Position numbers and translations under genes: made by a program | Source of the DNA: Thelocarpon superellum | Taxonomy: Eukaryota | Length of the DNA stretch: 45,647 nt | Direction: 5' to 3' | Assembly (NCBI GenBank): GCA_026025795.1 | Contig: JAPEUG010000002.1 | Span: forward strand, 124,001-169,647 | Notes under the pieces: model-generated | Database searches by the model: none | The model's input: only the letters and a program-made list of their open reading frames with translations | What the model was told of the DNA's origin: nothing | In this document: piece by piece, positions 7,481-11,931 of the stretch | How positions within the stretch are numbered: position 1 is the stretch's first letter | Layout: each line of letters starts with the position of its first letter

Positions 7481-8674
7481 ATGGTGCAGAACAAAGGTCT
7501 CATCTTCAAAGCGGTGCCAAAGGGTTGGCCCGTTCCGGGGCAAGACCTGGCGGTGGAGACGCGTGAGTTTGACGTCAACCAAGCACCTCCTGCAAAGGGC
7601 ATCACCACGCGGAATTACTACGTGTCCTTCGATCCTTATCAGCGCGGACGAATGCGTCCGGCGGGGACGAAGAGCTATAACGAGCCCTACACCCTCGGGC
7701 GGCCCATCGAGAACGGAGCCATCTCCAAGGTTCTCAAGAGTGACAATGAGAAGTTCAAGCAGGGCGACATCGTCATCCTGGCCGTACCGACGGAGGAGTA
7801 TAGTTCCCTGAGCGAGCCGTGGTTGGCGAAGGCCCGAAAACTGGACAATCCCTATCATCTGGACCCCAAACTCTTCATCGGCCCGCTGGGCATGCCCGGC
7901 TTGACCGCGTACAGCTCATTCTACGACATCGGCAAGCCCAAGAAGGGCGAGACCATCCTCGTGTCGGCCGCGAGCGGCGCCGTGGGTCAGATTGTCGGGC
8001 AGTTGGCCAAGCACGAAGGCTTGACGGTGCTCGGGAGCGTAGGTGACGACAAGAAGTTGGATTTCATCGTCAATGAGCTCGGCTTCGACGGCGGCTTCAA
8101 TTACAAGAAGGAAGCCCCCGCCGATGCGCTGAAGCGTCTGGCGCCGAAAGGACTGGACATTTACTACGAGAATGTGGGTGGCGAGGCCCTCGACGCCGCC
8201 CTGGCGCACATGAAGGACTTTGGTCGGATCGGTACGCTAACCATCCACCCCTCTCGACCATGCCTTCGCGGCCGACTGACCTGTTGGCACAGTAACATGC
8301 GGGATGATCTCGCAGTACAACTTGAAGCCCGAGGAGCAGTACGGGGTCAAGAACATCATCGCGGTCGTTAGTAAGCGCCTGACGATACGCGGATTCATCG
8401 TGACGGACCCAAACATGGGACCGGTCTACTTTGCCGAGCAGCAGAAGAACATGCAAAAGTGGATTCACGAGGGCACCTTCAAGTCCCAATTGGACGTGAC
8501 GGATGGGATCGACCACGCCGTGGACGGATTTCTGGGGATGCTTCAAGGCAAGAACTTTGGGAAGGCGCTGCTGAAGCTGGCTGATCTTGACCCGGTAAGA
8601 CGCCGCCGTCTGGTTTCTTTTGCTCTGCCGACAGCTGATGGTGATAGTGACAGGGCTCCCCGACGAAGCTATGA
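7481..8674 (+). CDS. NADP-dependent oxidoreductase, MDR superfamily (alkenal/prostaglandin reductase-like), 3 exons
   Basis: Exons 7481-8231, 8293-8594, 8654-8674; introns 8232-8292 and 8595-8653. Motifs SFDPYQRGRM, LGMPGLTAY, VSAASGAVGQIVGQLAK, GLDIYYENVGG, GRIVTCGMISQYN, GKNFGK. An alternative acceptor at 8647 would end the CDS at 8650 (see findings). Confidence 0.93.
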
Positions 8675-8919
8675 ATGTAGATGCCTCTGACCGTGAAGAT
8701 GATGGGATCTACCGACAATGTTCGGAGAGCTGGAGTAACTCCATAACTTGCGAACAAAATGATTGGACCGGTTTTCATCCTCTTTGTTGTGTGAAGCCCG
8801 GGGACTTAGCCCAGACTCGGAAACCCTGAGAAGGCTCGCTCGTTAGTTGGAGTTGGCGCGACGAGTGGAAAATGTTAAACTTTGCTTGACGCCACGGTGC
8901 GTCGTAGAAGTACGAAAAA

Positions 8920-8958
8920 GTACGAAGAACTCCGTACGAAGAACTCCGTACTCCGTAC
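8920..8958 (+). repeat. Short tandem duplication (GTACGAAGAACTCC)x2 + GTACTCCGTAC upstream of HIS4
   Basis: Units at 8920-8933 and 8934-8947; ACTCCGTAC occurs at 8929, 8943 and 8950. Confidence 0.75.
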
Positions 8959-9147
8959 CATCCAGACTACGGATTCCTCGTAGCGATGTCGGACCCAAGA
9001 CTGACCCCACCATGTCAGTGGAACAGAGAACCTAGGGCTGAACATGGACTTCCGCATTGATTGATCCGCCATATCCACACAAAATACCCTCGTTCACACG
9101 TTCATCCGCTCTGTCAAGGGATAGACGCCGACGGCTTGATAAAGGAG

Positions 9148-11931
9148 ATGACCTTCCCTTTCGTACCTGCAGTGGGCGACATCCGCCAACTCGTCCGAAC
9201 AGACCAGCTCTATCGCCCCTCTCTGTCCTATCTTCAATATCTAGGAAGTGTCTTTGCCGCCGTGACTACTGATGAGGTTGCGGATACCTTGGGGTCGGTC
9301 GAAGCACTCCGGAAGAGCTTTGGGGCACGCTTGAATGTCCTACTCGATGTCACCGCCCTCAGCGAGACTGGACAAGTTGTCCAGATATTGGACGTTGGAG
9401 TATCCAAAGCAATAGTGTCAAAGACGCAGCTAAGAGAGCTCCAAGACCATGCTAACATCGCCTCGGATCGACTCGTGCTTCGCGTCTTGGAAGCAGACCT
9501 CCACACCACGTCAACGATCACCGGCGAGACCACCGGCGGCTATCACGTTCCCAACCTGAGCGAGCCCATCTCTGTGGCCGAATGGATTCGGAAGAATGGC
9601 CACGGTCCTCTATATGTCTCCCTACCCCAGGAGGGATTGACGTCACCTGTCGAGACGTATACCGCCCTCCTGGCGGCAACTGCAATCCCTGTCATTCCGG
9701 CCTCTATACTGAGCGTGACCAAGGCGAAGGGTGCTGAAGAACTCCCCATCTCGTCGTTCTTACCCATTCGCTCGGACCGACCAGACGGTCTCTTTCCAAC
9801 CTTGGTGGCCGACGAGAGAGGCGTCGCCTTGGGTCTGGTCTATAGTACGAATGAGAGCATCCAAGAGAGCCTTCGTACCGGCCGTGGGGTCTATCACAGT
9901 CGGCACCGGGGGCTTTGGTACAAGGGGGAGAGCAGTGGTGACATCCAGGAACTGGTGAAGCTCGAGCTCGACTGTGATGCCGATTGTTTGAAGTTCACCG
10001 TCCGGCAAAGGGGCCGAGGTGAGACGACGCGGACCAAGACTTCATGAGCAGGCTGATAGAGACATCCCAGGCTTCTGCCACTTGGCTACGGCAACATGCT
10101 TCGGAGACTACCAGGGGCTGTCACGTCTGGAGAAAACCTTGCAGTCCCGCAAGTCTTCGGCTCCGACCGGCTCCTACACGGCGCGACTGTTTTCATCTCC
10201 CGAGCTTCTCCACGCGAAGATCATGGAAGAGGCGGAAGAATTGTGTAGTGCTAAAACACGCGAAGACGTGGCCTTTGAGGCAGCCGACCTGCTCTACTTT
10301 GCTCTCAGCAAATGTGTCAGCACAGGGGTGACGCTGGAAGAGGTGGAGCGGAATCTGGATAATAAGAGCCTCAAAGTCAGTCGAAGGAAGGGAGATGCAA
10401 AAGGTCCATGGGCGAAGACAGAGGGCCTGGCCAATGGAAGTGCAAGGAAAGAGGCCAAGAAAGAGCCCAAAGAAGCAACATCAACACCTGCAACCAAGGG
10501 GGCGCCTTCAGACGAGGGGAAGGAGAGAATTCGCATGACCCGATATGTTACGTCGAGCACAACGACGGCAGTCGTCCATGAAGCGTTACAGCGACCATCG
10601 CAACGATCGACAGACGCAATCATGGACATCGTCAAGCCTATAATTAAGGCCATCCAAGAACGAGGCGATGCAGCATTGCTTGAATACACGCACAAGTTCG
10701 AGAACGCCACATCGCTCACGTCACCCGTTATTCGGGCTCCCTTCCCTGCCAGCTTGATGCAGATCTCTGACGAGACGAAAGACGCCATCGACGTGAGCTT
10801 CGAGAACATCCGCAAGTTTCACGCAGCACAAAAGGAGACCAAGCCCCTGGTGGTGGAGACCATGCCAGGGGTGTCGTGTTCACGCTTCGCTCGGCCCATT
10901 GAACGAGTCGGGCTCTATGTGCCCGGCGGTACGGCCGTCCTCCCATCGACGGCCCTCATGCTGGGGGTGCCAGCCCAAGTAGCCGGGTGCCAAAAGATCG
11001 TCATGGCGTCTCCGCCCCGGGCCGACGGATCCATCACACCGGAAATTGTGTATGTCGCGCACAAGGTTGGCGCAGAAAGCATCGTCCTCGCCGGTGGGGC
11101 GCAAGCGGTGGCCGCGATGGCGTATGGGACGGAGAGCGTGAGCAAGGTGGATAAGATCCTGGGGCCCGGAAATCAATTCGTCACGGCGGGCAAGATGGTG
11201 GTGTCAAACGACACCAGCGCGGGGGTCAGCATCGACATGCCCGCCGGACCCAGCGAAGTCATGGTCATCGCGGACGCCACGGCCCGGCCGGCGTTCGTGG
11301 CGTCGGACCTGCTCAGCCAGGCGGAACACGGCGTCGACTCGCAGGTGGTGCTGATCGCGGTGGACCTGACGGAAGCGCAACTGGCGGCCATCGAAGACGA
11401 GCTCGACCGACAGGCGAACGCCCTCCCGCGCGTCGACATTGTCCGCGGCGCCATCAAGCACTCGGTGACGCTGGTCGTCACGGATATTGACGAGGCGATG
11501 CGACTCAGCAACGCGTACGCGCCCGAGCATCTGATCCTACAGGTGGCTCAGGCGGCGGAGGTACTCCACATGGTGGAGAATGCTGGGAGCGTATTTGTCG
11601 GCCCGTGGACTCCTGAGAGCGTAGGGGATTATTCGGCCGGAGTGAACCATTCGTTGCGTGAGTTCTTTCCCCTCCTCTCTCCTCCCGTCTCTCAACTGAC
11701 GAGCGAGAAGCAACATATGGATACGCACGACAATACAGCGGCGTGAATCTCGCTAGCTACATCAAGCACATCACAAGCTCGACGCTGACGGAGGAGGGAC
11801 TACGCAACGTCGGGGGCGCCGTTATGCAGCTGGCGCGCGTCGAGGAGCTGGAGGCTCACCGGAGGGCGGTGGATGTTCGATTAAGGTTTTTGGACGCTGC
11901 CGGTGCTACCGAGACGGCGGGAAGGGAGTAG
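9148..11931 (+). CDS. HIS4: Trifunctional histidine biosynthesis protein (PR-AMP cyclohydrolase / PR-ATP pyrophosphatase / histidinol dehydrogenase), 3 exons
   Basis: Exons 9148-10018, 10071-11657, 11711-11931. HisI motif LWYKGESSG...DCDADCL...GFCHL; HisE motif KIMEEAEEL...EAADLLY; HisD motifs GLYVPGGTAVLPST, DMPAGPSE, QAEHG, YAPEHL, GDYSAGVNHSLPTYG (spans intron 2), EELEAHRRAV. Orthologue of Neurospora his-3. Confidence 0.97.

Follow-up and report, generated by a model that had tools for sequence, protein, structure and literature searches.

Can the last intron of a metabolic gene decide whether its enzyme stays in the cytosol or also reaches the peroxisome? The question is raised by a lichen-fungus reductase gene on the + strand of a 45,647-nucleotide stretch of the Thelocarpon superellum genome (contig JAPEUG010000002.1, positions 124,001 to 169,647; hereafter the window). 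There, in the terminal intron, close to where the coding sequence ends, two candidate AG acceptors stand 6 nt apart downstream of one branch site. A sequence-only reading of this stretch had proposed dual targeting of the product by alternative splicing or stop-codon readthrough. Comparison with relatives favors the acceptor half of that proposal, through a conserved intron module and the peroxisomal signals (PTS1) of related proteins, and disfavors the readthrough half, the stop context being UGA CA and none of eight relatives having the tail in frame. We estimate the probability that the last intron of the window gene is a splice switch for cytosolic and peroxisomal targeting of the reductase at roughly 0.55.

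The enzyme and its terminal intron

Similarity to proteins of known structure identifies the predicted product as a cytosolic-type, NADP-dependent 2-alkenal/double-bond reductase of the MDR superfamily. Residues 7-343 are covered by the Pfam domains ADH_N_2 (59.7 bits, cut-off 31), ADH_zinc_N (69.9 bits, cut-off 31.8), and ADH_zinc_N_2. Among proteins of solved structure, plant double-bond reductases and the Arabidopsis 2-alkenal reductase score best (E 2.5e-76 and 1e-73), with PTGR1/LTB4 12-hydroxydehydrogenase next; the alignments span query residues 2-348 overall, and that of the Arabidopsis structure 2j3h covers residues 3-345. The enzyme is similar over the full length to 2j3h (P1/AER), 6eow (raspberry ketone synthase), and PTGR1 (E 2.5e-76 to 1e-46) and has its Pfam domains in common with them; its predicted activity, by similarity to 2j3h, 6eow, and 1v3t, is the NADPH-dependent reduction of an alpha,beta-unsaturated carbonyl. 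The difference lies at the C-terminus: the matched solved chains end at the domain end of the window enzyme, which has an extra tail. Since the solved homologues stop at query residue 344-348 of 357, the GSPTKL tail lies beyond the folded domain and is an appendage. The earlier claim that the MDR domain is complete before the last intron is thereby upheld, as both the Pfam and the solved-structure alignments end upstream of the tail; the domain is already complete at position 8594, where exon 2 closes with ...ADLDP.

The gene model (Table 1) was obtained by direct reading with a script check, starting from the ATG at 7481; the two-acceptor anatomy of the terminal intron, as first described, proved correct in every coordinate. 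The product of distal splicing has 357 aa and is letter for letter the deposited protein P0003, 'MAG: hypothetical protein M1838_001611 [Thelocarpon superellum]'. The two predicted products diverge at the C-terminus only, one ending in ...LDP and the other in ...LDPGSPTKL. Within the terminal intron, a pyrimidine-rich stretch separates the donor GTAAGA from the branch-site-like GCTGAT, and the branch A at 8638 precedes the A of the proximal AG by 8 nt and that of the distal AG by 14 nt. In intron 1 (8232..8292), 12 nt lie between the branch A and the A of the acceptor.

Table 1. Features of the reductase gene, in window coordinates
Feature	Position	Strand	Description
Exon 1	7481..8231	+	250 codons + 1 base; 100% identity to P0003
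Intron 1	8232..8292	+	61 nt, phase 1; donor GTACGC, branch CTGAC, acceptor CAG; spliced model identical to P0003
Exon 2	8293..8594	+	C-terminal end ...GKALLKLADLDP, phase 0
Terminal-intron donor GTAAGA	8595..8600	+	
Branch-site-like GCTGAT	8634..8639	+	Branch A at 8638
Proximal acceptor TAG	8645..8647	+	AG itself at 8646-8647
Terminal intron, short form	8595..8647	+	53 nt; predicted product 351 aa, ending ...LDP
TGA stop	8648..8650	+	First codon past the proximal acceptor; CAG next
Distal acceptor CAG	8651..8653	+	AG itself at 8652-8653
Terminal intron, long form	8595..8653	+	59 nt; form in the deposited protein model
Tail GSPTKL (six codons) and TGA stop	8654..8674	+	PTS1-like; TKL non-canonical

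It should be noted that AG-stop-NAG as such is no rarity, occurring 11 times in the 91,294 positions of the window's two strands, so that the case rests on the location of the motif and its conservation in relatives rather than on the motif itself.

Some other readings of the same region were dropped. A third acceptor, AAG, would give a 74-nt intron and adds one residue and no information; an acceptor at 8633-8634 implies a 40-nt intron, shorter than any seen here; and retention of the window intron yields a 31-residue tail that ends in RCL and carries no PTS1. A second branch-like sequence, GTGAT, is present at 8641-8645; its A (8644) precedes that of the distal AG by 8 nt, which mirrors the 8 nt between GCTGAT and the proximal AG.

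A stop-adjacent intron in related genes

Metagenome contigs were scanned with an alignment of 52 family members, and the best 80 of 574 confirmed matches were taken. A readable 3' end was found in 71 of these 80 loci; the nine lacking the conserved GxNFGKxxL motif were excluded, and removal of six exact duplicates left 65 distinct ends. Ten of these 65 (L019, L020, L022, L036, L046, L050, L053, L055, L070, and L072; best 80 of 574) have a phase-0 terminal intron with a stop directly after the first acceptor, situated 6-9 codons past the GxNFGKxxL motif. In seven of the ten, the acceptor is followed by TGAG, and the AG found 4 nt further on opens a frame of 7-9 residues with a canonical PTS1 end. 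These distal-frame tails end in SRM (L019), SKI (L020), SKL (L022, and L050 with its near-twin L053), and ARL (L046 with its near-twin L072). With near-identical pairs merged, the count of PTS1 tails becomes five of eight (among the best 80 of 574). L036, L055, and L070, the other three of these eight module relatives, have no PTS1 tail in the distal frame, which indicates that the tag can be lost.

The background frequency of such ends is low: [SAC][KRH][LMI] closes 143 of 14,671 open frames in the same loci, i.e., about 1%. The binomial probability of at least five in eight is 4.7e-9, a value that assumes independence and, because the module loci are related, overstates it. The five distal tails share little sequence except the last three residues, which is the pattern expected from selection on a targeting signal. 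The idea that orthologues keep the terminal intron together with PTS1-like ends thus finds support among the best 80 of 574 matches, where 10 of 65 distinct loci keep the stop-adjacent intron and seven of these ten carry a PTS1 tail.

A FastTree guide tree of 75 loci with at least 300 aligned residues and 32 proteins (five loci were left out; the tree was read for topology) places the window gene next to Cirrosporium and to L008 and L016. These nearest loci have a direct stop and no intron. The window group is sister to a lichen-fungus clade that holds L022, L046/L072, L050/L053, L055, L070, and Teloschistaceae, while L019 and L020 are placed among Dothideomycetes. The module, occurring in both the lichen-fungus clade and the Dothideomycetes, is therefore spread over several classes.

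The distance between branch point and proximal acceptor is another conserved property of the module. From branch A to the proximal AG there are exactly 8 nt in eight of nine module introns, the window included; the exception is L036, with 11 nt, and for L050 the nearer CTAAC was counted. In intron 1 of the same genes, this distance ranges from 9 to 22 nt in 19 rows and is never 8, and AGs lying 2-5 nt past the branch are skipped in intron 1 of L051 and L052. The 14-nt distance of the window's distal site falls within the range seen among short candidate introns of the window, a noisy heuristic survey that provides a rough range only. The conserved 8-nt spacing suggests that the proximal AG is kept barely usable, which would leave room for competition from the next AG, and it may be this spacing that sets the ratio of the two forms.

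The window gene differs from its TGAG relatives in the details of the pair. Its acceptors are 6 nt apart rather than 4, its tail is in frame, and its distal acceptor, 14 nt from the branch, is a consensus CAG, whereas that of the relatives is a GAG at 12 nt. GAG is a weaker acceptor, disfavored relative to YAG; the distal site being GAG in the seven TGAG loci, the proximal YAG is very likely used there. Given the consensus CAG 14 nt from its branch, the window gene may yield more of the tagged form. For the lichen-fungus TGAG relatives among annotated proteins (P0051, P0016, P0094, P0087, P0065, and others), cluster look-ups gave genomic or annotated forms only, with no transcript-sized contigs among them.

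Other routes to a tag and known peroxisomal switches

Alternative acceptors are not the only way in which members of this family come to a PTS1. In L035 and L069, a TAA stop lies inside the donor (GA|GTAAGT): the unspliced product ends in ...ADE, and the spliced tails end in SKL. The same overlap of donor and stop occurs in L012 and L064, with no PTS1 among the candidate products of these two loci. For loci without the module, none of the other candidate splice products listed by script ends in a PTS1. Direct SKL or AKL ends, encoded without any switch, occur in five of the 65 loci (L018, L023, L026, L060, and L078; best 80 of 574).

A different arrangement is seen in a Leotiomycete branch. 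In L006 (1462-1540), read by eye, the codons for ...ADPE run straight into a 51-nt intron whose donor, GTTGGT, is weak, and TAA stands on its far side, so that the spliced form would be the short one. Protein P0244 (350 aa, ending ...ADPE; 16 contigs, at most 1,657 nt) equals P0026 over all 350 residues, while P0026 itself has 356 aa, ends in SKL, and occurs on contigs of up to 1.47 Mb. P0251 and the annotated Cadophora-like P0241 stand in the same short/long relation, and P0093 and P0253 are 98.9% identical. Public forms of 350 aa and of 356 aa ending in SKL are on record for Cadophora malorum and related species. The six extra residues of the long form begin with V-S, which is how a GTNAGY donor reads when translated. 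Taken together, L006 and the pairs P0026/P0244, P0241/P0251, and P0253/P0093 suggest that in this branch the retained intron itself encodes the PTS1.

Annotated proteins add further variety, bearing in mind that annotation records one isoform per gene and that the nearest lichen-fungus relatives were compared as proteins. Tails end in AKI in Peltula, SRL in Venustampulla and Leptodontidium, SKL in Rhynchosporium, and TKL in Lachnellula willkommii. Bipolaris annotations, those of B. sorokiniana and B. maydis among them, either end in ...SKI (357 aa) or lack this ending (355 aa), and contigs of 1.4-1.5 kb carry both lengths. Among the nearest lichen-fungus annotations, as judged from protein records, the majority lack a PTS1 (Sclerophora, Thelocarpon impressellum, Watsoniomyces, Caeruleum, Cirrosporium, and Agyrium). 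In Flavoplaca, the genomic DNA has a direct stop, and P0282, on a 48-kb contig, ends in TICEMK. With SKL, AKL, and SRL tails elsewhere in the family and the module in relatives, the alternative-acceptor half of the original proposal stands, and at the level of the family the splice-switch interpretation is, in our opinion, well supported by these comparisons.

As a separate observation, several Dothideomycete members (L002, L003, P0076, P0106, P0193, and P0025) end in ...SKLQ, ...SKLE, or ...AKLE, where a single additional residue between a PTS1 tripeptide and the stop masks the signal.

The closest precedent is malate dehydrogenase (MDH). As described in PMC3372373, the terminal intron of Yarrowia YlMDH2 has 3' splice sites 4 nt apart, which give a cytosolic form and, from the distal site only, an AKI-tagged peroxisomal form; the evidence comprises cDNA clones, carbon-source-dependent RNA-seq ratios, and tagged isoforms. 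PMC7491326 reports the same 4-nt pair together with intron retention in A. fumigatus MDH, gives the switch an inferred age of more than 590 million years, and describes its replacement in other yeasts by duplicate genes with and without PTS1. The resemblance is close: in each system two AGs lie a few nucleotides apart, and the proximal one gives the untagged and the distal one the PTS1-bearing form, a prediction in the case of the window. Relatives of the window gene likewise have apparent intron retention or separate constitutive genes. Unlike MDH, the window gene encodes an MDR alkenal reductase, its stop directly follows the proximal site, and its tag is TKL rather than AKI; its spacing is 6 nt in frame, while its relatives have 4 nt with a frameshift, as MDH does. 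The MDH switch has been shown by RNA and localization; that of the window gene is a prediction from sequence.

Further spliced PTS1 cases listed in the review PMC3798809 are GAPDH, PGK, Gnd1, and hydroxypyruvate reductase, with cryptic PTS1 by differential splicing attributed there to U. maydis GAPDH and A. nidulans PGK (Freitag et al. 2012). In these systems, as summarized in the same source, a minor splice isoform of a cytosolic enzyme acquires a PTS1 at its C-terminus; the likeness to the window gene lies in this, and the enzyme and pathway differ. The general premise of the sequence-only reading, that fungi make cryptic peroxisomal isoforms of cytosolic enzymes, is accordingly well founded in the MDH, GAPDH, and PGK precedents. 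A literature search, conducted mostly outside subscription journals, found no report tying the reductase family to spliced or cryptic PTS1. The window gene is a probable further case of a known type of switch, in another enzyme family.

Weighing the explanations

The preferred explanation can be put as follows. Splicing at the proximal AG would place TGA right after the last domain codon and produce the untagged enzyme of 351 aa. Splicing at the distal AG, 6 nt further, would remove this stop and add GSPTKL, which may serve as a weak PTS1, with Pex5 taking a portion of the enzyme into peroxisomes. The branch point is unusually near to the proximal AG (8 nt), and for this reason the distal AG would plausibly compete with the latter. 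We infer that both acceptors are used in Thelocarpon superellum and that TKL presumably mediates import.

How good a signal TKL might be is central to this explanation. Measured against the canonical PTS1, [SAC][KRH][LM], it fits with K at -2 and L at -1 and fails with T at -3; the initial caveat that the tripeptide is non-canonical was justified, the -3 residue being outside S/A/C. Residues -6 to -4 are G-S-P, and aspartates are found at -8 and -10. According to PMC9542071, weak plant tripeptides require a basic-nonpolar-basic arrangement in positions -6 to -4; the G-S-P of the window differs from it, and no enhancing residues stand upstream of TKL. On the other side, TKL counts as an established PTS1 tripeptide in plants (PMC9542071, Table 1; PMC9328179), and the TKL of zebrafish Urad is called 'weak but functional' in COS-7 cells (PMC8919083). 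In the literature searched, no fungal test of TKL as a PTS1 was found. By analogy with the plant and zebrafish reports, TKL would be a weak, non-canonical signal.

Two simpler accounts, each with a single working acceptor, have to be considered. The distal site, a consensus CAG at the typical 14 nt with a 6-nt in-frame spacing, could be the only one used, in which case a single 357-aa protein ending in TKL would be made, and any partitioning of it would stem from the weakness of its signal rather than from splicing. In agreement with this, 14 nt is within the 9-22 nt of family intron 1, the 8 nt of the proximal site is shorter than any intron 1 spacing seen, AGs close to the branch are skipped in intron 1 of L051 and L052, and the gene prediction that gave P0003 uses the distal site. 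We nevertheless regard exclusive use of the distal site as unlikely: it leaves unexplained the stop found directly after the proximal AG in the window and in all ten module loci (best 80 of 574); in seven of those loci the distal GAG is disfavored and the proximal YAG is very likely used; and 8 nt is just one base below the 9 nt of working intron 1 acceptors. Conversely, only the proximal acceptor might matter, the product being the cytosolic enzyme ending in ...LDP and GSPTKL being a decayed PTS1 relic or a chance frame. The non-canonical tripeptide without upstream enhancing residues is in line with this, as are the loss of the PTS1 tail in three of eight module relatives (L036, L055, and L070), the absence of a tail from several annotated close relatives, and the direct stop in the genomic DNA of Flavoplaca (P0282). 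This account is, in our judgment, improbable. TKL ends only 2 of the 14,671 background open frames from the same metagenome loci, and xKL 63 of them, and this rarity makes its chance presence exactly in the next-AG frame unlikely; a homologue from Lachnellula willkommii has TKL in place of the SRL or SKL found in its relatives; the tripeptide works in plants and, weakly, in zebrafish (PMC9542071, PMC8919083); and the distal CAG is a good acceptor.

The remaining possibility is that an appreciable part of the protein with the TKL tail arises when the TGA of the proximally spliced mRNA is read through. The extension is indeed in frame: past the TGA, which would be read as one residue, come Q, GSPTKL, and a stop. 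Moreover, a C after TGA favors leakiness, according to PMC4207609. The same paper defines the efficient context in fungi and animals as UGA CU, improved by A and then G, and the window has UGA CAG, with A rather than U as the second base. The PTS1 isoforms described there (U. maydis Tpi1, Pgk1, Art1, and Rpe1; human LDHB and MDH1) share with the window the UGA-C and an in-frame PTS1-like extension, and differ from it in the UGA CU(A) context; the tails of the window's relatives are moreover off frame. The stop and the PTS1 tail share a frame in none of the eight module relatives, whose stop contexts are different ones (TGA-GA, TGA-GG, TGA-TG, or TAA-GT); readthrough is therefore not what selection kept. 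The readthrough half of the original proposal thus fares poorly on both the stop context and the frame of the relatives' tails; a meaningful contribution from it seems very improbable, and readthrough may at most give a trace of tagged protein in the window gene. In passing, the stop after ...DAEL in L016 reads TGA CTA G, the efficient readthrough motif, and the seven-codon in-frame extension behind it has no PTS1.

Returning to the splice switch, a broader and more speculative generalization may be drawn. The stop-adjacent intron might be an evolvable module for conditional tagging, present in at least three classes of filamentous ascomycetes, from which a PTS1 is reached by three routes: a second AG 4-6 nt further on, a donor-embedded stop that is spliced out, and a retained intron that encodes the tag. 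The 8-nt spacing would then be a tuned rheostat setting the ratio of cytosolic to peroxisomal enzyme, and the window would represent a variant that combines a weaker signal with a stronger distal acceptor. Taken jointly, these propositions are tentative, and we consider it somewhat doubtful that all of them hold.

Malate dehydrogenase and some enzymes of glycolysis and the pentose-phosphate pathway have known cryptic peroxisomal isoforms that tiny splice shifts produce. If the splice switch proposed here is real, an NADPH-dependent detoxifier of reactive alkenals joins the cryptic-peroxisomal list, and it would suggest that fungal peroxisomes, where fatty-acid oxidation makes peroxides, have an alkenal-reducing activity of their own. 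Gene models with a single acceptor would hide such a targeting decision: the tagged form is the one annotated for the window gene, and the untagged form is annotated in many relatives. Finally, the conserved branch-to-AG spacing of 8 nt offers a straightforward and testable entry to the question of how isoform ratios are set in fungi.

The region downstream of the gene also deserves brief mention. Intergenic sequence on its 3' side, at window positions 8908-8958, contains short perfect tandem repeats, including 2.3 copies of the 14-nt unit GTACGAAGAACTCC, with which 10-nt and 7-nt repeats overlap. The next + strand gene (9142-10070), in which the noisy heuristic survey marked a candidate 52-nt intron at 10019-10070, encodes a phosphoribosyl-AMP cyclohydrolase domain (PF01502, E 2.4e-18) and is, by virtue of this domain, HIS4-like, a gene of histidine biosynthesis.
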